Shown here: piece by piece, positions 8,782-55,495 of the stretch
Numbering within the stretch: position 1 is the stretch's first letter
Layout: each line of letters begins with the position of its first letter
IMG/VR virus record: IMGVR_UViG_3300021387_000796
Span: 1-64,000 of that record
Length of the DNA: 64,000 nt
Reading direction: 5' to 3' (one strand)
Source of the DNA: a virus
Lineage: Duplodnaviria; Caudoviricetes
Notes under the pieces: generated by a model
Seen by the model: only the letters and a program-made list of their open reading frames with translations
What the model was told of the DNA's origin: nothing
Database searches by the model: none
Translations under genes and position numbers: made by a program

Positions 8782-9691
8782 TTAAATAATTGATAATTTT
8801 ACTTGACAGATAAATCTCCTTATGATATTATAATAATCGTAAGGAGATTTATTTTATGGATTTGAAAGATACTTTATGGGAACTTTTCGGAAAGAACAGA
8901 GATGAAATTGGAATAGTGGAATTATCATCTATAGATAAAGTTCGAGCGATGGGTGACCATGTGGACTTTATTTATAATGGAAAAGCAATCTTTCGTGGAT
9001 TTAATGAAAATAAATTTATTTTTACAAGTGTAGGTTTATCTGACAGAAAACAGAGAGATAGACTTAACGCTTGTCTTTATGCTCAAGGTACACAATATTC
9101 TGTTTATATGAAAGATGGAAAAGTTTACGCTTGTTATGGTGGAAGAAGTATGAGAAATTCTATTGAATTAGATGGAGTTTCTATGTATAAAACGGATTTT
9201 GTAAATAATTGTCATATATTTGAAAAGTTTTAACTATTTAACTATCTTTGATATATAGGAGAAATAGAATTATGGTTGTACATTTAACTGATGAAGATTT
9301 TAAAGATGTTGAATTTATGGATGCTCTTAAAGAAGAACTTACTGAAGCAGAAAAACTCTGTAAAAAGTATGGTTATTATGGAGAGTTTTATATTGATGAA
9401 AATCTCGTAATTGGTGATGTTTATGCACAAAAGGATGAATATCAACCGAAGATTTATATTGAGTCTAGAAAGAAATTTGAAATAAGAATTCAGACAACTT
9501 CTTATGGTTCTTTATCTATTGATAAATATAATAAGTTTTTGAGTGATAATATTGATGCTATGCATTTGGCAGAAGATTTAACTAACACTTTGTTTATTTG
9601 TTCGCAGTTGGTTAAATAATATTGGATTTAATCTTGTTTCAAAATAATTAAATATGGTATAAAAGAGTGAACAAAATGTTCACTCTTTTTA

Positions 9692-10339: not shown

Positions 10340-11835
10340 AGTTCCGTATTTATATATGAAAACACCAATTCAATTAGAATATATTAAAGATGATGAAGAT
10401 TGTGAGTATGAAGTACAGACTTATATAGAGACATGTGCTTATGAAAATAATAAATTATTTGATGTTGTTATCAGTAAGAATATTTTATTTGATGATGGTT
10501 ATGAAGAAGCGTTTCTGTTAAAATATGCTAAAGGTTTGAAAGATTTAGATGAGGTCGAAGACTTATGTGATGAAATAATTTTGGCGGATAGAGGAGAATA
10601 ACTATTTGAATTATGATAGAGTTTACAAATAAAACCCCAACTATCGCCGATGTGTATACATATACTTATTTGAATCCTCATACATATAATCGATTTGAAT
10701 ATGCGAAACGAGACGTTGTAAAAACTAGAATCCATATCGAAAGACGTATTGTTTATAGGAAAAATAAGGAAGGACGTTATACAGTACCTTATGAGAGATT
10801 ATTGGTAAAATCATATTCATACCCACAATACAGACCTTATCTTTCAATTAAAACTAAAAATGCTAAAAAACAAAGAACTATAAGACACGAATATGATGTT
10901 ATTATATGTATTCAACCATATGGTGATAAAAACGAGTATTCTTACCAATATAGTAAGATAATATGGAGAGTAGGGTCGTTTAAAAAATGGCAAAAGCCTC
11001 CACAATCAAAAATCAAAAGTGTCTATAAAGAAACAAGAGAAAAATTAGAAAAGAAATATAATAAATTACCACCAAAAGAAAAGGAAAAAGCAATAAAAGA
11101 ACAAATTGATAAAATAAAACGTAGAGGGGAATACCTTGATGTTGGAGATTTTTGCAGTAGGTCTCTAGGGATTTGTGGAGATGATTATTGGAGGTCTTTT
11201 CCAAATCAAGTTAAATATGACGCTCTTTATGGAAAAGCCTATAATTTAGAATCTCCTAAAAATATAGGATATTGTTATTTTTCAAAACATGCATTATCAG
11301 TAATAAATTTCCTTCTTCGTAAAGGTATAATTAAATATAAATAATTTTATAAGCCTTTAACTATTTAATTTGAGAAAAAGAGAGTTGATAATTATCTTTA
11401 TCTTTAATAAACTAAATACTAAGAGATAAACGAAATGTCTGAACGAAATTCTATCGGTAAAATCAATCTATTATAAAACAAAAAAATTCGGAGGAAATAT
11501 GACAGAATCATCAAAAGAAATGAAGTTTATTGAAGGTGTAGATTTGGATGAAAAGAATGTGTCGGTCGAGTATGACAATACGATAGAATATGAAATAGAT
11601 GATTATGTCAGTTTGATGTATTCTAAGAATGAGAAAAAGTTTTATATTGAATTTATAGATTATGAAGATACTTATGATGAGATTAGATATGAACTAGATG
11701 ATAATTTTGACGGAATGACTTTTAATGGAGTTTTTGTCAGCAAAGAAGATTATTGTGATTTTAAGGAATTAATTTTAAAGTCGGTATAAATTTTTAACTA
11801 TTTTATTTATATTTCAATTTATTGGAGAAATTTTT

Positions 11836-12636
11836 ATGGCTGACGAAGATACAAGACGATTAATCCCAATCTCAATTAAAAAATTAGAGAATAATTTGTG
11901 GAATATCAAAATCGATGATGGTGAATCTTATAATGTAGAAGGTGATTTTGATTCCATTAAGAAAGCACTTAGACGTATTAAGGCAAAAGATGGTGCTGAA
12001 TACGGAAAATGTCGAAGTTCCAAAAAAGGAACATATGCGTCCATGATTGGCGATATTGATAACAATGACTTACATAAAATAAATGTGTGGAAATCTAAAG
12101 TCCCGCATTCGCCTGAGGATTTTAAGAAATTAATGGAGAATAATAAAATGAAAAGTATAACACTTACAAAAAATTACCTTATTGAAGGAAACATTGTTTC
12201 AAAAGGAACATTGATTACACTGAAAGAGAAGTTGGACTTTTTGCCTTCTGATATTTGGGAAAAAGCAAAAACAATCGAAGATAAGCATGAAAGATTTGAG
12301 TTTGTAAAAGCCGAATTGAATAAACTCGGAGATGATTACACAGATGATGAAATTGAAAATTTCTTGTCAAAATACGAAACAGAACTGACAGAATCCCTTA
12401 CAGAAAAAGAAGTAGATGGACTTGGTGATATGTTGGACATGCTTGAAGAAACATTGGAATCAGAAGATTATGTTGCAAAAGAAAACTTCAAAAAAGTTCT
12501 TGATATCGCAAAGAAAGATGAAGAACTTCTTGATGCATGGGAAGCAATGGCAACTGCTGACGACAAAACATTTGTTAAAAAGGAAAATGACTTTTGGAAC
12601 AGATTTGATAAAATTTGTAAACCATTCAAAAAATAA
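11836..12636 (+). CDS. Putative late/virion protein with a likely internal start at 12148 (MKSITLTKNYLIEG)
   Basis: TAACTAT motif upstream. Internal GGAG SD with an in-frame ATG. The N-terminal motif is shared with 19000 and 51853. Confidence 0.5.
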   Translation: MADEDTRRLIPISIKKLENNLWNIKIDDGESYNVEGDFDSIKKALRRIKAKDGAEYGKCRSSKKGTYASMIGDIDNNDLHKINVWKSKVPHSPEDFKKLMENNKMKSITLTKNYLIEGNIVSKGTLITLKEKLDFLPSDIWEKAKTIEDKHERFEFVKAELNKLGDDYTDDEIENFLSKYETELTESLTEKEVDGLGDMLDMLEETLESEDYVAKENFKKVLDIAKKDEELLDAWEAMATADDKTFVKKENDFWNRFDKICKPFKK

Positions 12637-12993
12637 GGAGATAAATTATGGCAAAGAAAAATTATAAAACAACAAATAACGATAAAAGAGTTTATCCTAT
12701 TAAAGTAAGATTGATTAAGCCAAATCCTGCAAATCAAGATAAGGTGGTTTATAATAATGTTGAACTTTATACATATAAAGATACTGTTATCGAAACTGTA
12801 GATGAATTCGCTAAGATTATTCCTATGCAGAAATACCTTGTAATCAAATCGGATGTTGTAGAATCGAAAACAGAAGTTGTAGAAGATAAAATTGAAAATG
12901 ATGAATAATTTTAATTAAAAAATTTATAAAATTATTGAAAGTTTAATACAAAATGTGTTAAAATCCTTGCAGAATATAAAGCAAGGATTTTTT

Positions 12994-13983
12994 ATGATTC
13001 AAGATGTTGAACAGTTATTATTGACTCATGGTATAAAATATCAAAAGAAAGGAAATAAAATTTTATGTTTATGCCCTAACCCTAATCATAATGATAAACA
13101 CGTAGGTTCGTTTTCTTTTGATACGATTAAAGGTGTAGGACATTGTTTTGCGTGTGGTTGTGCAGTAAATATATTTTCATTTAATAAATTACTCGGTGAA
13201 AAGTTGGAATATAAAGGTGATGTAAATTATGAATTTGCTAAATCTTTGAAACCAAAGAAAGAAGAAGTCGTGTATACTAAACCAATTGTTTATGGAAAAC
13301 TTTACGACCCTTTTTATGATAATAGAGTTATGGATTTCTTGCATGGAATCGGTTGGTCGGATGAGTTTATTGAAGAAAAGAGTGTAAAGTATTGTCGATA
13401 TTGTGAGATGATTGGTGAAAATATTGTAAATGATATTGATGAAAAGCCTACCGTTATGGAGAACAGAATTTGCATACCGATTTATAAAGACGGAAAACTT
13501 GTAAATTATGAGTGTCGAACTTTTGATAATAATCCTATAAAAGTAAAATATGTAAAAGGTTGTTCGAGTAATTTGATATATGGAATCGATGATATTGACT
13601 TGAATAAAGAAGTAATTTTATCTGAAGGAATAAAGAATATCGGAAAATGCTGGACTGTAAACAAAAACGTCATATCTACTTTTGGAAATCAAATCACAGA
13701 TATAAAAATGAGGATGTTAAATAAAATACCTAATCTTCTTGTTTTTTTAGATAATGATGATGGCGGATTACTCATGGCTCAAAAATTAAAAGAAGGTTAT
13801 GTGGGAAATTTAAGAGCAACATTCTGTCCAAAATTTTATAAAAAGGGTTCAGAAATTAAAGGTTTTGATATGAACGATTGCACATTACAAGAAATTCAAG
13901 AATATATAAATCATACAATGTCTATTGATAAGGCGATTCGAAAATTATCAAACAATAAATCTGATGAAATTTTTTGGCTTTGA
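12994..13983 (+). CDS. DNA primase (CHC2 zinc finger plus TOPRIM)
   Basis: CPNPNHND...CFAC zinc finger, SEG and FLDNDDGG. ATG 12994 follows an AAGGA SD. Confidence 0.88.
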   Translation: MIQDVEQLLLTHGIKYQKKGNKILCLCPNPNHNDKHVGSFSFDTIKGVGHCFACGCAVNIFSFNKLLGEKLEYKGDVNYEFAKSLKPKKEEVVYTKPIVYGKLYDPFYDNRVMDFLHGIGWSDEFIEEKSVKYCRYCEMIGENIVNDIDEKPTVMENRICIPIYKDGKLVNYECRTFDNNPIKVKYVKGCSSNLIYGIDDIDLNKEVILSEGIKNIGKCWTVNKNVISTFGNQITDIKMRMLNKIPNLLVFLDNDDGGLLMAQKLKEGYVGNLRATFCPKFYKKGSEIKGFDMNDCTLQEIQEYINHTMSIDKAIRKLSNNKSDEIFWL

Positions 13984-14029
13984 TTTTTGAACTTGAAATG
14001 TTAAAGAAATAAGTATACTATCTTATATT

Positions 14030-14100
14030 AAGAGGTGAGTTTAGGTTTTCGCCCTAAACGTTGATTGAATTTTAATCTCGTTCAATCACGCCTCTTTTTT
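14030..14100 (+). ncRNA. Putative three-way-junction regulatory RNA, copy 1
   Basis: Promoter TTGAAA-17-TACTAT (13993-14021). Closing stem 14030-37/14089-96, loops TTTTCGC and TTTTAATCTCG, then a T-run. Confidence 0.75.
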
Positions 14101-14178
14101 TTATAACTATTTATATGTGTAAACATTAACTATTTAAGTTAATACAAAGTCAGCGAAAATGACTTAAAAATTAAAATT

Positions 14179-15507
14179 ATGAATCTGATGAATCGAATGA
14201 TGTCTTATGATAAGACAAAGAATGTAAATCGAAAGTGTGATTGTGAAAAATGTGCAAATGTTAAATTTGAAAATCAAACTGTAGAACATCTACCTTTATC
14301 CGAAGAAGAAATTAATCAAATTATTAAAGAAAGATATTCTAATAAAGATGAAAAGACAAAGAAATTTATTAGAAAAGCATTACGAAAATATGGTGATAGA
14401 TATGATTATTCAAATGTGGTTTATGTAAAAGCAATAGAAAAAGTAGAAATAATTTGTAGAGTTGAAGGTCATAAACCATTTCCTCAAACACCTAATAATC
14501 ATTTGAATGGTAAAGGTTGTAAAAAATGTGCATTTGAAAAAATATCAAAATTGAAGAAATTAACCACCAAAGAATTTATAGAAAAAGCAAATGAAGTTCA
14601 TGGTGATATGTATGATTATTCTAAAGTGGAATATGTGGGTATGAAAACAGAAGTGATTATAATTTGTCCGAAACATGGACCTTTTTCACAAATACCTAGT
14701 AGTCATTTACAAGGTTGTGGATGTAAACAATGTGGTATTGAAAAACAAATTGAAAGTCAAAAATTAAATACGGAAAAATTTATAAAAAAAGCAAATGAAA
14801 AATACGGAGAAGGAACTTATGATTATTCGAAAGTAGAATATATTGATGCTAAAACTGATGTGATTATAATATGCCCAAAACATGGTGAATTTACACAAAC
14901 TCCATCGAATCATTTAAAAGGGGAAAAATGCCGAAGTTGTTCTAATGAAAAATTAGCAAACGAAAGAAGAAAACCGTTAGAAAATTTTATAAATGAGTCA
15001 AATGAAATTCATGGAGAAGGAACTTATGATTATTCTCAAGTAAATTATGTGAATAGTCATACAGAAGTAATTATAATTTGTTCAAAACATGGTAATTTTT
15101 TTCAAAAACCTAGCAAACATTTAATCGGTCAAGGTTGTCCTAAATGTAAGAATAATTATAAAGGAGAAATCGCAGTTAGAAATTTTTTAATAAAAAATAA
15201 AATAGAATTTGAAGAACAGAAAAAATTTAAAAATTGTAAAGATGTATATTCGTTACCTTTTGATTTTTATTTGCCAAAATATAATTTGTGTATAGAATTT
15301 GACGGAATACAACATTTTAAACCAATAAAACGAAGTTATAAAATGACTGATGATGAAATTGAAAAAAATTTCAAATATATTCAAAAACATGACCAAATTA
15401 AAAACGATTACTGTAAAAACAATGGGATTATTCTCATAAGACTTAATAATCTTAAAATGGTCGAAAAGGAATTAACAAAATACTTTCAAGAATACGGAAT
15501 TTTATAG
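14179..15507 (+). CDS. Free-standing endonuclease: four YDYS/CxxHG/GCxxC (DUF723-like) repeats plus C-terminal PD-(D/E)xK/Vsr-like domain
   Basis: Repeats YDYSKVEY..IICPKHG.F.Q.P..HL.G.GC..C and LPFDFYLP.YNLCIEFDG.QHF. Paralog of 54161. Confidence 0.8.
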   Translation: MNLMNRMMSYDKTKNVNRKCDCEKCANVKFENQTVEHLPLSEEEINQIIKERYSNKDEKTKKFIRKALRKYGDRYDYSNVVYVKAIEKVEIICRVEGHKPFPQTPNNHLNGKGCKKCAFEKISKLKKLTTKEFIEKANEVHGDMYDYSKVEYVGMKTEVIIICPKHGPFSQIPSSHLQGCGCKQCGIEKQIESQKLNTEKFIKKANEKYGEGTYDYSKVEYIDAKTDVIIICPKHGEFTQTPSNHLKGEKCRSCSNEKLANERRKPLENFINESNEIHGEGTYDYSQVNYVNSHTEVIIICSKHGNFFQKPSKHLIGQGCPKCKNNYKGEIAVRNFLIKNKIEFEEQKKFKNCKDVYSLPFDFYLPKYNLCIEFDGIQHFKPIKRSYKMTDDEIEKNFKYIQKHDQIKNDYCKNNGIILIRLNNLKMVEKELTKYFQEYGIL

Positions 15508-15751
15508 AATTCTATTGATTTTTCAATAAATATTAAATTATAATGATAATACAATTTTGAGGTGTAATATGAGCAGTATGACGGATATTTATTGGAATGT
15601 AATTCAAGAACTTTTGAAAAAATTAAATTATTATGAAGAAAACTATGCTTGTCATATAACTCATGTTTTACCGAGCGGTAATATTGAATATGAATTTAAT
15701 CCAAGTTGCACAAATTATTCCCTAACGGTAAAAAATGAAGAGGGTGAATAA

Positions 15752-15808
15752 ATGTCAGATGTTATTTTATATAAAGGTGATTGTCTTGTAGAAAGGAGAA
15801 ATGTATGA
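15752..15808 (+). pseudogene. N-terminal remnant of a deleted DNA methyltransferase
   Basis: MSDVILYKGDCLVE matches the MTase starts MSDIKLYNEDCL (5893) and MTETLYKGDCLIE (31755). Confidence 0.65.
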
Positions 15809-16029
15809 TATATGAATATAACACAGATTCTATCATAGGAAACGATATCTATAGAGATGTGGTAATTGATGATGGTAGTAGAAAAAGAAACTCAAGAACA
15901 TCAAACACTTGGATTCAAAATCCCATGATATGTCCTAGTTGTCATAATTCAAATTGTCTGACAAAACATAATTATTATAAATGGTATTGTGTTTTGTGCG
16001 GATGGGAAGATTGTTGATTTTAATAATTT

Positions 16030-18126
16030 TTATCTTTTCTTAAACTTTAAGCCGAATTTTTCATAAAGTTCGTCTTGAAGTTTCTTTTCATTTTTTTGTG
16101 AACAATCTTCTTTTTCATCAGTATCATCGTATAAGAATGTAGCGTAATTTACATTACTTTTATCAGCATTGGTACAAGCACCTACGAATGAATCTGACAA
16201 ATCTTTTCCAAAATATCCACATTTTGATTTTTCCCAATCAGAGTTTTCCAAATCTATCCAATCACCTTGAACATGGTCTACAATAAGTTTTCCACTCTTA
16301 CTTTCTTTACCATTATGACCTTCGTTTGTCGTGATTAAAGATTTCATGTTATTTTTCATTACCAAGTTTTTACCAATTTTTACTCTACCTTGCATGACCC
16401 AAGAAGCAAACGACAAATAATAATCAGGTGTGTTATCCAACGATAATCTTTCGCATTCAACACCATTTCTTTCCAAAAATTGAATAGAACTTTTTGATTC
16501 AAATCCATCATATGTTGCTTTTTTGATATTGGTATTTCCGTAAATCTTCATACAATAAACTAAATATTTGAAACTATCCAAGTTTATCTTATCATCTTTT
16601 TTACTCATGATGGGTAAAGTAAAATCGGCAACATACATCTTTCTTCCAATTTTATCTGTTTCGAGATGTACCATAGAGATACCAGCCATATCTTTCTTTT
16701 CAGCCATATCAATATGAACAAAACGTTCAGCGGAAGGATAACGTTTTAATCTGAAAGAATTTTGTTTTCCTGTATAGACATAACATAAAGGTCTGACTTT
16801 ATCCCATAATAGTGTTTCAGGTGGCAACAAATAACTTGCATATTCAAACATATAAAAATTCTTCAAATTCGGTACAAAACACTTATTTATTAATTCGTGA
16901 TTAGTAAAAAGTTTTGTATCTGAACCTGCAGTTGGAGTTGCACCGAAGTCACGCATGATTTTAGCAACATTATCTTTTGCTAGTTCATATAAGTCGTTAG
17001 GAGTCCAAATAATATCTTCTTCGTTAAAGTTTTTTACTTCTTCTTTTGTAATAATTTTTGTAGGTTGTGTAGAAGTTCCTTTAAAGATAGGAAATACATT
17101 ATTTTTTTTATCTTTTTCATATATAGGAAACATCCATGAAAATGTAGGAAGTTCCCATTTTTTATCATTAATGAATAATTTATCTTTATCGTTTTTATGT
17201 TTTTCAATCCATTGGTCGGCTAATCCTTCCATAGAGTTAGGAGATGAATCTACAATTAATGAAACATTGGGATTGTTATATCCAAAACGGTTATGAACAC
17301 GAGAAAACATTTCATCAACGAGTTTCATAACTTTTTCTTCAGGCATAACTTCTTTCAAAAACGAAAGTTCGGTGGCGGACACAGAAATTAGGTTTCTACC
17401 TACAAGTTGAATCGGCTCAGAAATACAATCATAAAAAATATCACCAACCCTCAAAATAGAGTTACCTTTAGAAGTATTACAAAAAAGTATTTTTCCACTT
17501 TCTGTATATTCGGGGTTGGTCATATCCCTCTCATAATGCAATTTTTGACATTTAGGGGATGTTTGTAACAAACTGTCAAGTCCTTTAATCACAAGGTCAT
17601 ATGCACTTGATTTTGTAAAAGAAATTGTAGCATCTGTTAAACGTGTACTTTCACCTAGTTTAAGATATTGTTTTGGATTTCTATAAGATATTGTAAGAAC
17701 CGCTCTATAAAATTTAATCATAGCCAAGAGCGTAGATTTACCCCAACCAATCTAAGTACAACAATAAGTAATTAAAGTGTTCTTATTTACAGATGGGTCG
17801 AAATATTTAATAAAAGTTTCTTTGCAATGAGGAAAAACTTCTTTTGCTTGTGGTCCAATCCATTCTTCCGTTAAAAATTCTTCTACTGTTGGTGGTTTGA
17901 ATTTATGATTTATTTTCCAACTGTTTTCAAGAAGATTTCCTTTTTCTCTTTCAGATAATTTTTCATTATGTAAAATTATACTCAATGCTGAATTAATATC
18001 TTCAACTTCTGATTCTGTAAATAAATCAGAATTTAATATATTATCTAAGTAATGCAAATCATCTGCTGGGTGCGAAATTATATCTTTTTCCATGTCGATA
18101 AGATTATTTAATTCTTGTTGTTGCAT
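16030..18126 (-). CDS. terL: Terminase large subunit interrupted by one in-frame TAG (17752-17754)
   Basis: The two track ORFs are in frame and read YCCT*IGWGKST (Walker A). RNase H-like nuclease motifs HIDMAEKKD, TYDGFES and KDLSDS. SD GGAGGT precedes ATG 18126. Confidence 0.8.
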
Positions 18127-40068: not shown

Positions 40069-40141
40069 ATTTTTAATTATTTCTCTTTAAATTTATGATT
40101 TTTTACTTGATTAAATATTTAGAATTTATTATATTTAATTG

Positions 40142-40202
40142 TGAGAGGACAGTATGCTACCAACATATTGATTTCATATTCCTTTATGAAATCTAACTCT
40201 TA
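40142..40202 (+). ncRNA. Putative three-way-junction regulatory RNA, copy 3
   Basis: Promoter TTGATT-17-TATATT (40107-40135). Loops CTACCAA and TTCCTT are complementary to leader loop TTGGTAG and SD AAGGAA. Confidence 0.75.
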
Positions 40203-40253
40203 ACTATTTATGTTGTCATTGGTAGTGACATAAAAGTTAAAACATTTAAGGAA

Positions 40254-42335
40254 ATGAAACAAATGACTGAAATCAAAGATAATTTAAAATCGATATCGTG
40301 GATTCGTAAAAATATTAATGTAAAATTAAAAACGTTAAATAAAATAATAAAAATTCTAAATCTCAATCCCACAATTAGAACAAATAAATTTAACGAACAA
40401 ACGGAATATTATGATTTAGATAAAATAAAAGAATTTATAAATTCTCACGATGTTAATCGTATGTATAGTATTTCGCAAATTTCTAAAATAATAGGTGTTG
40501 GTCGTACATCAATAAATACAGTAATAAAATATTTAAATTTAGATAAATTTGAATTTTTATGCGATGAAGAATTGAATAAAATAAAACAATTTTATAAAGA
40601 GCATGAGAATGATTATAGATATTTTTTTCAAAACAAAACAAATCTTGAAAAATACGGTTCGTTGTGTCCGTTGGCAAATAAAGAAATTCAAAAGAAAGCA
40701 GAAGAAACTTGTTTGGAAAAATATGGTGTAAAAAATTATACCAAAACTGAAGAATTTAAAACAAAATTTAAACAAACTTCTTTAGAAAAATATGGTACAG
40801 AATTTCCTATGCAAAACGAAGATGTTAAAGAAAAAGGAAAGCAAACTTCATTAGAACGTTATGGTGTTGAATATGCATCTCAAAGTGAAGATTTTAGAAA
40901 AAGAGTTGAACGAACTAATTTAGAAAAATACAATACAAGATGTTCGCTTCATTCATATGAAGCAGAACAAAAAACTAAAGAAACTAACTTAAAATGTTAT
41001 GGTGTAGAAAATGTTTCACAATCAAATATCATTAAAGAAAAAGTTAAGAATACTAATTTAAAAAATTTCGGAGTTGAACATCCGATTCAAAATGAAAAAA
41101 TCAAAGAAAAGATTAAACAAACCAATCTCAAAAAGTTAGGAGTTGAATATCCTACACAAAATAAAGATATTATGAATAAAGTAAAACAAAGTAATCTTAA
41201 AAAATTTGGTGTAGAATGTTCTTTACAAAATAAAGAAATTAGAGATAAAGTGACACAAACTTATTTGAAAAAATTAGAACTTGCAAAATCTCAAAATTTA
41301 TATTGTGTTAAAGATTTAGCAATTATTTTTAATAAAAGCGAAAGTGCCATTACTATGGATTTGAAGCGTCTAAACATTGATGTTGTCAAATTTGAAAAAG
41401 ATTTTAGGTTGTATGTAAAACAATCTGATTTGAAAATTCTTGAAAATTATTTTATTGATACAGAATGTAGCGGAATATCTTATTCTGAAAAAGAAATAGT
41501 AGAATTTATAAAATCTATTTATTCAGACGAAATTATTGAAAATAGTAGAACTATTATTTCACCAAAAGAATTGGATATTTATATACCTCAAAAGAATTTA
41601 GCAATTGAATATGATGGATTGTATTGGCATGATGAAAATCATGTGGAAAATAAATATCATTTAAATAAAACAAAAGCATGTAATGAAAAAGGGATAGATT
41701 TGATTCATGTTTTTGAAGATGATTGGTTGTACAAAAAAGAAATTGTGAAATCTATGATTTCTAGCCGACTTGGTGTTTATAAAGAAAAGATTTTTGCTCG
41801 TAAATGTCAGATAAAGGAAATTGAAAAAGACCAAGCGAAAATATTTTTTGATGAGAATCATTTACAAGGGTTTGCGTACGGTGATTTGTATTTAGGACTT
41901 ATGTTTAACAATGAACTTGTTCAATGCATCTGTATGAATAAAAAAGGTTGGCATGATGGAAATGTAGAATTAACTCGCATGGCTACAAAATTGAATATTC
42001 AAGTAATTGGAGGATTCAGTAAATTGATGAAACATATTTCCGATTATATTGAATACAAATCAATCACAAGTTATGTGTATAAAGCATGGTTTAATGGAAA
42101 AGGATATATGGAAAGTGGATTCAAAGTAATCAAAGAAAATAATCCTTCTTATTTTTATATTGTAAATGGTAAACGAATTCATAAATCTAATTTTCGAAAA
42201 GACAAGATTAAGAAAATGTTCGAGAGAGGGGGATTAGAATTTTATGATTCAGATAAAACAGAACATGAAATTATGAAGAAAAACAAGATATATAGAATTT
42301 ATGATTGCGGAACTATGAAAGTAATTTACGAATAA
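40254..42335 (+). CDS. Free-standing (Hef-like) endonuclease with about 8 TNLEKYGVE repeats
   Basis: Repeats KQTNLKKYGVEYP.Q, ELDIYIP...LAIEYDGLYWH and C-terminal RIYDCG. The start may be ATG 40263. Confidence 0.8.
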   Translation: MKQMTEIKDNLKSISWIRKNINVKLKTLNKIIKILNLNPTIRTNKFNEQTEYYDLDKIKEFINSHDVNRMYSISQISKIIGVGRTSINTVIKYLNLDKFEFLCDEELNKIKQFYKEHENDYRYFFQNKTNLEKYGSLCPLANKEIQKKAEETCLEKYGVKNYTKTEEFKTKFKQTSLEKYGTEFPMQNEDVKEKGKQTSLERYGVEYASQSEDFRKRVERTNLEKYNTRCSLHSYEAEQKTKETNLKCYGVENVSQSNIIKEKVKNTNLKNFGVEHPIQNEKIKEKIKQTNLKKLGVEYPTQNKDIMNKVKQSNLKKFGVECSLQNKEIRDKVTQTYLKKLELAKSQNLYCVKDLAIIFNKSESAITMDLKRLNIDVVKFEKDFRLYVKQSDLKILENYFIDTECSGISYSEKEIVEFIKSIYSDEIIENSRTIISPKELDIYIPQKNLAIEYDGLYWHDENHVENKYHLNKTKACNEKGIDLIHVFEDDWLYKKEIVKSMISSRLGVYKEKIFARKCQIKEIEKDQAKIFFDENHLQGFAYGDLYLGLMFNNELVQCICMNKKGWHDGNVELTRMATKLNIQVIGGFSKLMKHISDYIEYKSITSYVYKAWFNGKGYMESGFKVIKENNPSYFYIVNGKRIHKSNFRKDKIKKMFERGGLEFYDSDKTEHEIMKKNKIYRIYDCGTMKVIYE

Positions 42336-45096: not shown

Positions 45097-46422
45097 ATAT
45101 CAAATAGTTAAAATTAAATAACTATATTTACAAGCAACCTCTGTTTGTTTTGAAATTCAATTTAATTTCTTGCAAGAATCAATCAAGTTGCTTAATTTTT
45201 TAATAATTTTACTTGACAGATTACATTTAGTTGTGATATATTATGTGTAGGAGGAACGAATCATGATTACTTTAAATTCTTTAACAATTGATTTACTTCG
45301 TATAATTGGTGAAGCAAATAAAATTTGTTCGAATTTATTGACGGAATCATTTCTCAATGAAGATATGAAAGTCGATGTTAAAACTTTTGTATCTTTATTA
45401 AATTCATATAGCAACACTCTTGAAAAAATTTTGGATAATAGAGAATTTTTATCAAATAACGGAATATTGGATAGGTCTTTACATGATGTTTCTATAACCA
45501 AAGAAAAGGCTTTGAAAGCATTGAACGGATTAAACCACATTTGTAATAATTGTAAAGATACAGTAAAACGAAACATCTTAATAAACGCTACAACACATTT
45601 CAAAGAAGTCGTAAATACTTATCTGTTTGCAATTAAAATATATCTTGAAGAAGTATTTCCTAATACAGATGAAAATACTATCTTAAAGAGATATGATTTA
45701 TATGAAATTGAATAGGAGAAAATAAATTATGGCAAGATTTGGATTGGAAAATATTGATAGAGATTTCTTTTGGGAATTAGTCGATGAAGGATATGTTTCT
45801 TATAGTATTATTGACGCTTATCTTTATATGCTTTCACAGAAGTTGAGCAAAGATACGGATATTCACTTTAGAGTAGAGAATGGTTATTTGTATAATGATG
45901 AAATTGGATTCAAGATTCCAACCTCTACAATTACTACTTATGATAATCTGCTGAAAGATATCGAAAAGTTTTTGTCAGAAAATGCTCAAGAGAATGAGTT
46001 TGGTGTAGATACCAATAAACTTGCTAATCAATGGGCATATACATTTTCTCATACAGAAATGTCTCCATACTATGAAGGTGATGGTCATTGGAAAGCATAT
46101 GATGATTATTCACAAAAACGTGTTTGGGAAGCACTATACTTTATGGTTTTTGGAAAATATCATGATAATATGGATTGGGCATTCGATACGGCTAGTGAAT
46201 ATTTAATAAAAGACGGTAATAACTATAATGAAAAATTCCATTTCAAAGGAACGGTTTCTGAATTAGATAATATATCTGTTACATTTGCTAAAAACGGTAA
46301 TATTTCTGTAAAAAATCCAAGTAAAGAATATCTTGAAAAATTGCAATTTTTCTATGATGTTTGCGACCCAAAGAATAAGAATCATGCTAGATAAAATAAA
46401 TTAAATTTGATATTATTATTTT

Positions 46423-46495
46423 GATTGAAAGGAATGATAGGCGGTCAACCTATTGATAGAATATCCTAGTTCTGTCTAACCTTTCAATCTTTTTT
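46423..46495 (+). ncRNA. Orphan three-way-junction RNA, copy 4
   Basis: Closing stem GATTGAAAGG/CCTTTCAATC, loops CGGTCAA and ATCCTA, then a T-run and the same TAACTAT..AACATTAACTATTT spacer. Confidence 0.7.
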
Positions 46496-46957
46496 AACTA
46501 TCTTATATAAACATTAACTATTTATATCAGTATTGCAGATATGATAATTATGTAAAAATTTTAGGTGAATATATTGTAGACCTAAACTTTGATAAATTAT
46601 ATTAATAGGATGGTGAATTATGAATAATTTAGAAATAGCACAAAGTAAATTAAAATATTCAGACCATGAATTTTTTATTAAAGACAATAATGAAGATTTT
46701 AAATATTGGAATCAGTTATATCTTTCTTTGACTCAACTAGATAATTTGGAAGATATTATTTTTACAGTAAGACGTGCTGATTGTGGAGGAGTTATTCAAA
46801 TTGATAAAAACAAACTCTCTATTAGAGTAGATGCTGATAAAGGTAAGTTGCCTTTGTTTTGGATAGAATATGATATAATTAATGATATTATAATTTTCTT
46901 TTAATGAATGGAAATTTTTCAATTTAGTATTGTTTTATTCTTTCCTTTAATGATATA

Positions 46958-53992: not shown

Positions 53993-54072
53993 ATAAGCGA
54001 GATGTATTTCAAGTTGGTGCTTGAATTGACAGAATTCCTAATCTCATTTTGTCACATCTCGTTTATTTTTTT
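53993..54072 (+). ncRNA. Putative three-way-junction regulatory RNA, copy 2
   Basis: Promoter TTGATT-17-TATTAT (53957-85). 13-bp closing stem, loops TTGGTG and TCCTAATCTC, then a T-run. Confidence 0.8.
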
Positions 54073-54160: not shown

Positions 54161-55495
54161 ATGAATTCATTAACTCGAATGATGTCTTACGACAAGGCAA
54201 AAAGTAAAAATCAAGAACAGTGTAATTGTGTAGAATGTGTTTCTGTTGAAAATGCAGAATTAAAAAATCAAACGATTGAATACCCAAAATTATCGGAAGA
54301 AGAAATCGAACAAATTATTAATGAAATATATTCTTATAAAGATGAAAAGACAAAAACTTTTATTAGAAAAGCATTAAGAATTCATGGTAATAGATATGAT
54401 TATTCAAATGCTGTTTATGTGAATACTAAAATAAAAATTGAAATAATTTGTAAAATAAATAATCATAAAAATTTTTTGCAACGACCGAATGACCATTTGA
54501 AAGGTTGTGGATGTAAAGAATGTGCTAAAAAATATTTTGGTGCAAGTAAAAGATTAACATTGGAAGAATTTATAAAAAAATCAAACGAAATACAAGGTGA
54601 AGGGAGATATGATTATTCGAAAGTTGAATATAAAAATACGAATACTAAAGTATGTATAATTTGCAATAATCACGATGAACCTTATGAATTTTGGCAAACT
54701 CCTAGCAATCATTTAAACGGACACGGTTGCCCAAAATGTGCAAGAATTGAAAAATTAACCTTGAAAGAATTTATTGAAAAAGCGAACAGAGTTCATGGTG
54801 TAGGAACTTATGATTATTCTGAATCAAAATATATTAACACAATAACTCCTATTAAAATAATTTGTTTAATTCATGGTGGTTTTTGGCAGACACCCAATGT
54901 TCATTTAGGTGGAAGTGGATGTCCTAAATGTGCAAATGAACTTGTACATGAACGACAAAAATTAACCTTGAAAGAATTTATCGAAAAAGCAAATGAGGTA
55001 CAAGGGATTGGAAGATATGATTATTCAAAAGTAAAATATATAAATGCACATACTAAAGTAATTATAATTTGTCCGAAGCATGGTGAATTTTCTCAATTAC
55101 CTTATGCTCATTTAAAAGGACGAGGATGTATGTTATGTTGTGAAAAATCAAAAGGTGAAACAAAAATTAGAATATTTTTAATTAATAACAACATATCATT
55201 TGAACAAGAAAAACGATTTAAAGAATGTAGAGATAAAAATCCACTACCTTTCGATTTTTATTTACCGCAATATAATTTATGTATTGAATTTGACGGTGAA
55301 CAACATTTCAAACCATTCGCTTTTAATTCTAGGAAAGTAAGTGATGATATAAAATTAGAAAATCTCAAAAAGGTTCAAAAACATGACCAAATGAAAAATG
55401 ATTATTGTAAAAAGAACGGAATTACTCTTTTGAGAATTAACGATATTAGAAAAATTAATAAAATATTGAATGATTATTTTAAGATAAAAAATTAG
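54161..55495 (+). CDS. Free-standing endonuclease, paralog of 14179 (DUF723-like repeats plus PD-(D/E)xK/Vsr-like domain)
   Basis: Same N-terminal RMMSYDK, four YDYS repeats and LPFDFYLP..NLCIEFDGEQHF. Confidence 0.8.
   Translation: MNSLTRMMSYDKAKSKNQEQCNCVECVSVENAELKNQTIEYPKLSEEEIEQIINEIYSYKDEKTKTFIRKALRIHGNRYDYSNAVYVNTKIKIEIICKINNHKNFLQRPNDHLKGCGCKECAKKYFGASKRLTLEEFIKKSNEIQGEGRYDYSKVEYKNTNTKVCIICNNHDEPYEFWQTPSNHLNGHGCPKCARIEKLTLKEFIEKANRVHGVGTYDYSESKYINTITPIKIICLIHGGFWQTPNVHLGGSGCPKCANELVHERQKLTLKEFIEKANEVQGIGRYDYSKVKYINAHTKVIIICPKHGEFSQLPYAHLKGRGCMLCCEKSKGETKIRIFLINNNISFEQEKRFKECRDKNPLPFDFYLPQYNLCIEFDGEQHFKPFAFNSRKVSDDIKLENLKKVQKHDQMKNDYCKKNGITLLRINDIRKINKILNDYFKIKN

Follow-up and report, generated by a model that had tools for sequence, protein, structure and literature searches.

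The DNA analysed here (the window) comprises the first 64 kb (64,000 nucleotides, nt) of the 218,066-bp IMG/VR virus record IMGVR_UViG_3300021387_000796 (29% G+C), a gut/rumen phage (Duplodnaviria; Caudoviricetes) with a 218-kb genome. Directly behind its DNA primase gene lies a cassette, referred to as copy 1 in the following, in which a predicted small RNA precedes the gene of a putative homing endonuclease, and in which the leader of the nuclease gene is devoid of the Shine-Dalgarno (SD) sequence carried by its relatives. The locus is composed of the following elements (ORF, open reading frame):

12955 to 13983, plus strand: DNA primase gene, left neighbour of the cassette (Pfam Zn_ribbon_DnaG and Toprim_2; PHROG 47 DNA primase, E = 6e-32)
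13993 to 14021, plus strand: promoter-like region before the small RNA (TTGAAA-17-TACTAT, overlapping TATACTAT at 14014-14021, a variant of the phage motif TTAACTAT)
14004 to 15665, plus strand: the whole insertion of 1,662 bp, absent in the empty-site relative G002
14030 to 14102, plus strand: predicted small RNA (closing stem 14030-14037/14089-14096; hairpin 1, 14039-14059; hairpin 2, 14062-14088; T-run 14095-14102)
14103 to 14133, plus strand: two promoter-like motifs for the nuclease mRNA (ATAACTAT at 14103-14110, TTAACTAT at 14126-14133)
14147 to 14165, plus strand: 5' leader hairpin AAGTCA-GCGAAAA-TGACTT, its loop (14153-14159) complementary to loop 1 of the RNA; present in the centroid fold
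14166 to 14178, plus strand: rest of the leader, AAAAATTAAAATT, without SD; one surviving repeat ATTAAAATTAT (14170-14180) marks the junction of a 16-nt deletion
14179 to 15507, plus strand: intact nuclease ORF of 442 amino acids, zinc-ribbon (DUF4379/DUF723) repeats followed by a C-terminal Vsr-like domain (about residues 325-442)
15508 to 15665, plus strand: 3' end of the insertion, which provides the SD and the first 32 codons of a small ORF (15569-15751)

The same layout is found in copy 2 (RNA at about 53995-54070, ORF 54161-55495), with different loop letters and a normal AGGAG; the sequence-only reading, made from the letters of the window before the present analysis, had put this copy behind the helicase gene, and its position was confirmed in the sequence. 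A full third copy, again with loop letters of its own, lies on the minus strand at record positions 197727-199298. For comparison, cassettes were collected from viral and metagenome contigs, which encode the nuclease with an alignable N-terminal part; they provided 28 distinct upstream regions, to which all counts of cassettes below refer.

The predicted RNA of copy 1 is about 70 nt long and folds into a three-way junction, consisting of the closing stem and two hairpins and followed by eight T. The fold energy of this segment (computed for 14028-14100) amounts to -23.5 kcal/mol compared to -9.9 +/- 2.1 kcal/mol for shuffled sequences (z = -6.5; 0 of 200 shuffles as good). Hairpin 1 exposes a loop of 7 nt, TTTTCGC (14046-14052), and the loop of hairpin 2 spans 14071-14079. 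An unguided fold search returned the same junction before a T-rich run in 28 of the 28 cassettes, each with at least five T within 9 nt after the closing stem, and compensatory changes occur at 11 of the 22 predicted stem pairs. A covariance model built from the main RNA subtype (R1) scores 88 bits on the copy 1 RNA (E = 3e-19), copy 1 being one of its training sequences; within the genome it recovers only the three full cassettes and misses a diverged orphan RNA at 46.4 kb as well as a cassette at 40.1 kb, and is therefore unsuited as a census tool. No Rfam family matches the window at the gathering threshold, nor the three cassette loci at E <= 10. The junction was not flagged by a simple terminator scan because of the loop limit of that scan (8 nt), which also leaves multi-branched stems unscored. 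Loci of distant nuclease homologues (L013-L043) lack this RNA, which thus is specific to one phage clade. Three of these loci (L013-L015) have a different long stem, GGTAGAAAG...CTTTCTACT, about 130 to 20 nt before the nuclease ATG and just before the SD, which may be an unrelated RNA structure at the ribosome-binding site (RBS).

Both loops of the RNA had been proposed to pair with the nuclease leader, and both matches were recovered, each coordinate given for them proving correct. Loop 1 is the exact complement of the leader loop GCGAAAA (14153-14159), which is held by the stem AAGTCA/TGACTT (14147-14165), and the loop 2 region, AATTTTAAT (14068-14076, upper part of hairpin 2), has its complement in ATTAAAATT (14170-14178), adjoining the ATG at 14179. 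This complementarity works solely with an RNA read from the plus strand, i.e. the strand of the mRNA. Across the 28 cassettes, the apex of hairpin 1 falls into 17 sequence classes ("barcodes"), and in 17 of 17 classes it finds a perfect complement of 6-9 nt solely in the cognate leader, about 26-50 nt before the ATG. Loop-1 matches average 7.2 nt in cognate pairs compared to 4.2 nt in non-cognate ones, no pair between classes reaching 7 nt, and the mean duplex energies are -11.4 and -6.2 kcal/mol, respectively. With the summed cognate duplex energy of the 17 class representatives reached in 0 of 100,000 permutations, and cognate matches present in every class, the matching between loop 1 and leader exceeds chance. 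In other cassettes, loop 2 pairs with the stretch from the SD to the ATG (for example GAGATTAGGA in copy 2 and GGATTGTG in copy 3), the matches being 5-12 nt long and ending at about -1 to -3 in most cases. The comparison of the cassettes shows that both predicted RNA-mRNA contacts covary.

Pairing of this kind may serve more than one purpose. The junction could mainly be a terminator or insulator, the loop pairing sending the nuclease mRNA into duplex-dependent cleavage or decay, as by RNase III, rather than blocking the ribosome. Kissing complexes in other antisense systems often end in cleavage, and the position of the first contact, about 25-50 nt ahead of the AUG, would suit such a role; the consistent position of loop 2 over the SD-to-AUG stretch is, however, what RBS occlusion predicts. 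We regard cleavage as the principal outcome as rather improbable, and it should be noted that RBS occlusion and mRNA cleavage can coexist.

The transcription signals around the RNA are pattern matches only. The motif TTAACTAT occurs 37 times in the 218-kb genome, mostly in intergenic regions and 15-40 nt before an SD and ATG, and its longer form TTAACTATTT occurs 22 times versus about 5.5 occurrences estimated by chance from the base composition. The recurrent and often tandem element TTAACTAT(Y)T(T)A, examples of which are found in the window at 9230, 11794, 18311, 38210(-), 38246(-), 46494 and 46514, probably is a phage-specific promoter element. In 27 of the 28 cassettes the motif ends 13-19 nt before the leader barcode (13-16 nt in 23), a spacing by which the mRNA probably begins with the leader hairpin. 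Upstream of the RNA, a motif of the type [AT]A[AT][CT]TAT was found within 30 nt in 18 of the 28 cassettes, the regular expression having missed the TATACTAT variant of copy 1. A sigma-70 scan scored the match before the copy 1 RNA at 9 of 12; as 21 matches were found where 13.7 were expected, such matches being common in AT-rich DNA, a sigma-70 match before the RNA is weak evidence.

The same signals bear on the question whether the RNA acts as a separate molecule. In phages P1 and P7, the C4 RNA precedes its target on one and the same strand and is processed out of a transcript which it shares with the target. In an analogous manner, the folded element of the cassettes could act in cis on read-through from the primase operon, or be processed from it like C4, the loops then silencing long transcripts alone while those from the internal promoter escape. 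The order of elements on the same strand resembles that of C4, the junction was left unflagged by the simple terminator scan, and T4 endonuclease genes show the same arrangement of RBS-sequestering structures and an internal promoter (PMC2988022). Against a purely cis-acting element stand the T-run after the closing stem in all 28 cassettes, the promoter-like motif before the RNA in 18 of them, and the retention of the orphan RNA without any target; moreover, both target sites are also present on transcripts started at the internal promoter, and a trans-acting RNA would reach these too. We consider the cis explanation unlikely, yet deserving serious weight, and the two modes are not exclusive.

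The most striking property of copy 1 is found in its leader. The sequence-only reading had claimed that no SD precedes this gene; indeed, none of the cores GGAG, GAGG and AGGA occurs at -20 to -5, the calculated duplex with the anti-SD has an energy of +0.7 kcal/mol, and an SD is missing also before the next in-frame ATGs. A GGAG, GAGG or AGGA core is present in 26 of the 27 other cassettes (anti-SD duplexes of -5.8 to -10.6 kcal/mol) and the remaining one (L074) has a weakened AAGAG (-2.9 kcal/mol), so that copy 1 stands alone among the 28 in having no SD-like sequence at all. In the phage genome, an SD core precedes 68-83% of the long ORFs compared to 5.8% of random background 16-mers, and the median anti-SD duplex of the long ORFs has -6.4 kcal/mol.

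The origin of this leader can be read from its nearest relatives, L006 and L007, whose nucleases are 95% and 94% identical to that of copy 1 and which occupy the same site behind the primase gene. Both carry the leader GACTTAAAA-ATTAAAATTAT-AGGAG-ATTAAAATTAT-G, whereas the window has GACTTAAAA-ATTAAAATTAT-G; the difference is one clean 16-nt gap between the 11-nt direct repeats ATTAAAATTAT, which takes out AGGAG and leaves the letters AAAAATTAAAATTATG across the junction. The earlier suggestion of a deletion between AAAATTA repeats agrees with this, since the 11-nt repeats include AAAATTA, and 16 nt were lost in comparison to its own allele; the leader had also been estimated to be about 20 nt shorter than that of copy 2, the actual figure being 21 nt (a spacer between hairpin and ATG of 13 nt versus 34 nt). 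An SD-bearing allele was to be sought in related phages, and five independent alleles of the same barcode, from different samples, do carry ATAGGAGATTAA(A/T)TT-ATG. L006, L007 and L098 have AGGAGATTAAAATTATG, L093-96 have the same SD and spacer, and L097 has AGGAGATTAATTT-ATG; the sequence AAAAATTAAAATTAT right after the leader hairpin is common to many cassettes. On this comparison, the deletion is real and, given that the other cassettes retain their SD, its loss in copy 1 is the derived state.

The RNA seems not to have followed the change of its target. Loop 2 continues with CTC (14077-14079), as had been noted, and this ancestral anti-SD is kept: with loop 2 of the window RNA, a duplex of -12.6 kcal/mol would form on the L006 leader and one of only -4.3 kcal/mol on the leader of copy 1, and the corresponding duplex within L006 has -12.4 kcal/mol. 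In copy 1, the second contact is thereby cut to 9 A/U pairs beside the AUG.

Could the 16-nt gap be an artefact of sequencing or assembly, or a minor variant of a population which in reality carries the SD? The record was assembled from a metagenome, and errors of this type can arise at direct repeats. Nevertheless, we judge this very improbable. An ENA contig from a separate assembly (L092, 27.8 kb) repeats the SD-less allele with 100% identity across 4,311 bp, the gap included, and a second contig with this allele is on record; the repeat of 11 nt is below the usual k-mer length of assemblies; and the window allele differs from the SD-bearing alleles at many other positions, which makes it a distinct lineage.

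The protein itself was compared on the levels of sequence and structure. Pfam assigns DUF4379/DUF723 zinc-ribbon repeats, and the PHROGs hits carry the annotations "homing endonuclease" and "intron encoded nuclease". The C-terminal 118 residues were modelled with AlphaFold2 using 16 homologues (predicted local distance difference test, pLDDT, 95.4), and the top structure matches in the PDB were Vsr (1vsr; probability 1.00, template modelling score, TM, 0.59) and I-Bth0305I (3r3p; 0.99), with modest Foldseek E-values of 3e-3 to 2e-2. A sequence search of the PDB with the nuclease gave nothing at E <= 0.1, and only the fold search was informative; a blastn search against GenBank phages returned distant matches to the nuclease domain only and no related leader. 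The modelled catalytic fold and the residues D...E-x-D-G..H...D..K are shared with the I-Bth0305I/Vsr-like (EDxHD) endonucleases, and on the DNA level the gene resembles the "VSR homing endonuclease" genes of Staphylococcus phages. In contrast to these, the gene of copy 1 is intergenic instead of intronic, and four or five zinc-ribbon (DUF4379/DUF723) repeats are found at the N-terminus of its product. From the model and the Pfam hits, the nuclease combines a catalytic domain of the Vsr/EDxHD type with zinc-ribbon DNA-binding repeats. Elsewhere in the genome (69964-70332, minus strand; L005), a frame of 163 amino acids is 36% identical to the catalytic domain only (residues 321-435); this frame is perhaps a remnant, or else a Vsr-like gene standing alone, and upstream of it an RNA module was not evident.

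An mRNA without SD is most likely translated very poorly, and we think it likely that copy 1 is an RNA-braked homing cassette which lost its RBS and probably is near-silent; from sequence features, the RNA is predicted to be transcribed and to repress, and the nuclease, which the sequence-only reading had called "attenuated", is predicted to be translated less. Several observations weigh against this interpretation. Among the crude first-ATG ORFs of the genome, about 12% show anti-SD pairing no better than that of copy 1. The small RNA, its ends and its effect are predictions. The contig L092 perhaps stems from the same sample as the window record; it backs the allele as a second assembly and need not represent another sample. 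The nuclease ORF is intact, and the residues D, E, D, G, H, D and K conserved in distant homologues are all kept (those invariant in the 8-protein alignment A1 are in copy 1 by construction, as the alignment includes it). On the copy-1 branch, polarised with outgroups, 11 non-synonymous and 5 synonymous changes were counted compared to 12 and 18 on the SD-bearing branches, corresponding to an omega of about 0.5 versus about 0.15-0.2 elsewhere, a rise which is not significant (Fisher p = 0.12). Finally, half of the free-standing endonuclease genes of T4 (6 of 12) are without a recognisable translation initiation region and still functional (PMC2988022), and a missing SD therefore need not mean a silent gene.

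The intact ORF, the non-significant rise in omega and the T4 precedent, together with the intact promoter-like motifs and the intact RNA, would favour the view that the A/U-rich, unstructured leader of copy 1 still permits some translation, low yet useful, the deletion being a neutral or even favoured down-tuning of a functional homing endonuclease rather than the beginning of its loss. However, the SD-less genes of T4 overlap upstream ORFs, which permits coupling or re-initiation, whereas copy 1 starts 195 nt after the primase stop and behind a terminator-like structure. All other cassettes conserve an SD, 26 of the 27 a strong one, and the phage relies heavily on SDs overall. Furthermore, the copy-1-specific changes Y37H, P38L, E46N and H71Y (ORF numbering; alignment columns 41, 42, 50 and 75) affect positions which are conserved in every other homologue compared. 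Useful translation from the present leader thus appears unlikely to us, and the near-silent cassette is preferred. Decay of the protein through relaxed selection was considered as well; with the above p value, it is suggestive and is not claimed.

The relation of the cassette to its insertion site could be followed in the relative G002 (locus L085), in which the equivalent of window positions 12388-14003 (98% identity) directly joins that of 15666-17000 (94%). The primase is 98% identical in the relatives G002 and G003. When the filled and the empty allele are compared, the left flank has 450 identical nt and then 9 differences in the last 26 nt, and the right flank has 9 differences in the first 45 nt; such clustering at the junctions would be expected next to a homing site and is consistent with protection of the target. 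The empty site of G002 excludes the RNA too, which therefore is part of the mobile unit, and in the relative G001 the site behind the primase is occupied by a cassette of another barcode. As copy 1 is bounded by the primase gene and the small ORF 15569-15751, it does not reside in an intron or intein, and no group I or group II intron families were found by Rfam in the window. The earlier assignment as a free-standing homing endonuclease directly after the primase gene hence gains backing from the empty site and the differences clustered at the junctions. The sequence comparison supports copy 1 as a free-standing homing-endonuclease cassette, for which site-specific cleavage of the empty allele and homing during co-infection are predicted.

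Further observations concern the neighbourhood. The last 28 residues of the small ORF 15569-15751 (60 amino acids) match its G002 homologue with 82% identity; its first 32 residues stem from the cassette, and in G002 the homologous frame overlaps the 3' end of the primase gene. Window positions 11790-11835 represent an empty site, a 46-nt spacer with one TTAACTAT motif, whereas in G002 the homologues of ORFs 11499-11789 and 11836-12636 flank a full cassette (L008, barcode TCGTCAC/GTGACGA). In the loci L094 and L096 (positions 1-177), which belong to relatives sharing the barcode class of copy 1, an IS605 OrfB/Cas12f-like TnpB gene is located just upstream of the gene preceding the primase. A tRNA/tmRNA scan of the window found none.

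Among known systems, the closest working analogue is the C4 RNA of P1/P7, and the cassette RNA is not a member of the C4 family. Like C4 (immI; Rfam RF01695), it would be a small structured RNA upstream of its target and on the same strand, with loops complementary to sequences at or near the RBS; two loops face two downstream sites on the mRNA, one of them at the RBS, and matched changes accompany the 17 classes. In C4, loop complementarity blocks the RBS of ant, and matched differences give heteroimmunity (PMC12197685). Relatives thus differ in both systems by matched changes, with two specificities in C4 and 17 or more here. The C4 covariance model (RF01695) had no match in the window at the gathering threshold, nor in the three cassette loci at E <= 10. 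The cassette RNA also differs from C4 in its three-way junction, the terminator-like U-run, the internal promoter and a first contact in which one of its loops would kiss that of a 5' hairpin; between the RNA and its target lie the U-run and a promoter-like motif, and this target is a homing endonuclease instead of the icd/ant antirepressor operon.

Type I toxin-antitoxin systems (SymR/SymE; RNA I/RNA II of pAD1 par) are related in principle, an RNA blocking the translation of a potentially harmful protein by loop-initiated pairing at the RBS. In the cassettes, the protein is a site-specific homing nuclease and the transcripts do not overlap, so that complementarity must persist by co-evolution at two DNA sites. 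RNA structures at the RBS commonly restrict how strongly phage homing endonucleases are translated (PMC2988022). In homing endonuclease genes of T-even phages (I-TevI, I-TevII, I-TevIII, segB, Aeh1 mobE), RNA pairing over the SD likewise limits the endonuclease, and a promoter is located between the inhibitory sequence and the gene (PMC2988022); those are local hairpins acting in cis, whereas in the cassettes this task would fall to a folded module of its own, with a putative terminator and a private barcode, which should be capable of acting in trans. An RNA linked to a phage homing endonuclease gene is also known in CfrI of cyanophage S-PM2 (psbA/F-CphI) (PMC12197685), which is a cis-antisense RNA from the opposite strand, in contrast to the tandem, same-strand RNA with two loops described here. 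Our literature searches found no paper linking a trans-acting or tandem small RNA to a homing endonuclease.

We therefore propose the following course of events for an intact cassette. An RNA of about 70 nt with a terminator-like stem and U-run would be made from a phage promoter just upstream of the nuclease promoter. Its loop 1 (7 nt) would kiss the loop of the 5' hairpin of the nuclease mRNA, the loop pair serving as a private barcode for a fast and specific contact, and loop 2 would then cover the SD-to-AUG stretch, block binding of the 30S subunit and keep synthesis of the nuclease low. In the window phage, slippage or recombination between the 11-nt repeats ATTAAAATTAT would have removed the 16 nt including AGGAG. 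With its SD lost, copy 1 appears to be at an early stage of homing-gene decay.

Related elements are found in the same genome. At 46418-46496 of the window lies the orphan RNA, a three-way junction with the loop 1 CGGTCAA, followed by tandem TTAACTAT motifs and neither a nuclease nor a matching leader loop downstream; in L062 and L064, a near-identical RNA occurs at the orphan's site together with a full cassette, the leader loop of which is TTGACCG. At 40125-40260, the two-loop layout precedes a different gene (ATG near 40254): CTACCAA matches the leader loop TTGGTAG and the second loop TTCCTT matches AAGGAA before the ATG, a T-run is missing, and TTAACTAT directly adjoins the RNA. One may speculate that the guard RNA outlives its nuclease through selection acting on the RNA itself, with the SD-less copy 1 and the orphan at 46418-46496 providing a barcode-specific "anti-homing immunity", which silences the nuclease of the same barcode in a co-infecting relative, and the 17 or more barcodes arising from an arms race between nucleases and decoy RNAs; we would give this idea a small chance of being correct.

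Local RNA hairpins, promoters and autorepression are already known to restrain homing endonuclease genes of phages; a two-loop RNA with a private barcode, mobile together with the nuclease, would, if true, add a new layer of control. The 17 or more pairs of RNA and leader would then constitute a natural set which is expected not to cross-react. Copy 1 offers a natural mutant within this set, having barcode, RNA and promoters as in the five SD-bearing alleles and the SD alone removed. With intact copies, an SD-less copy, an orphan RNA and a nuclease fragment, one genome would hold successive stages of a cycle of gain and decay of homing genes.

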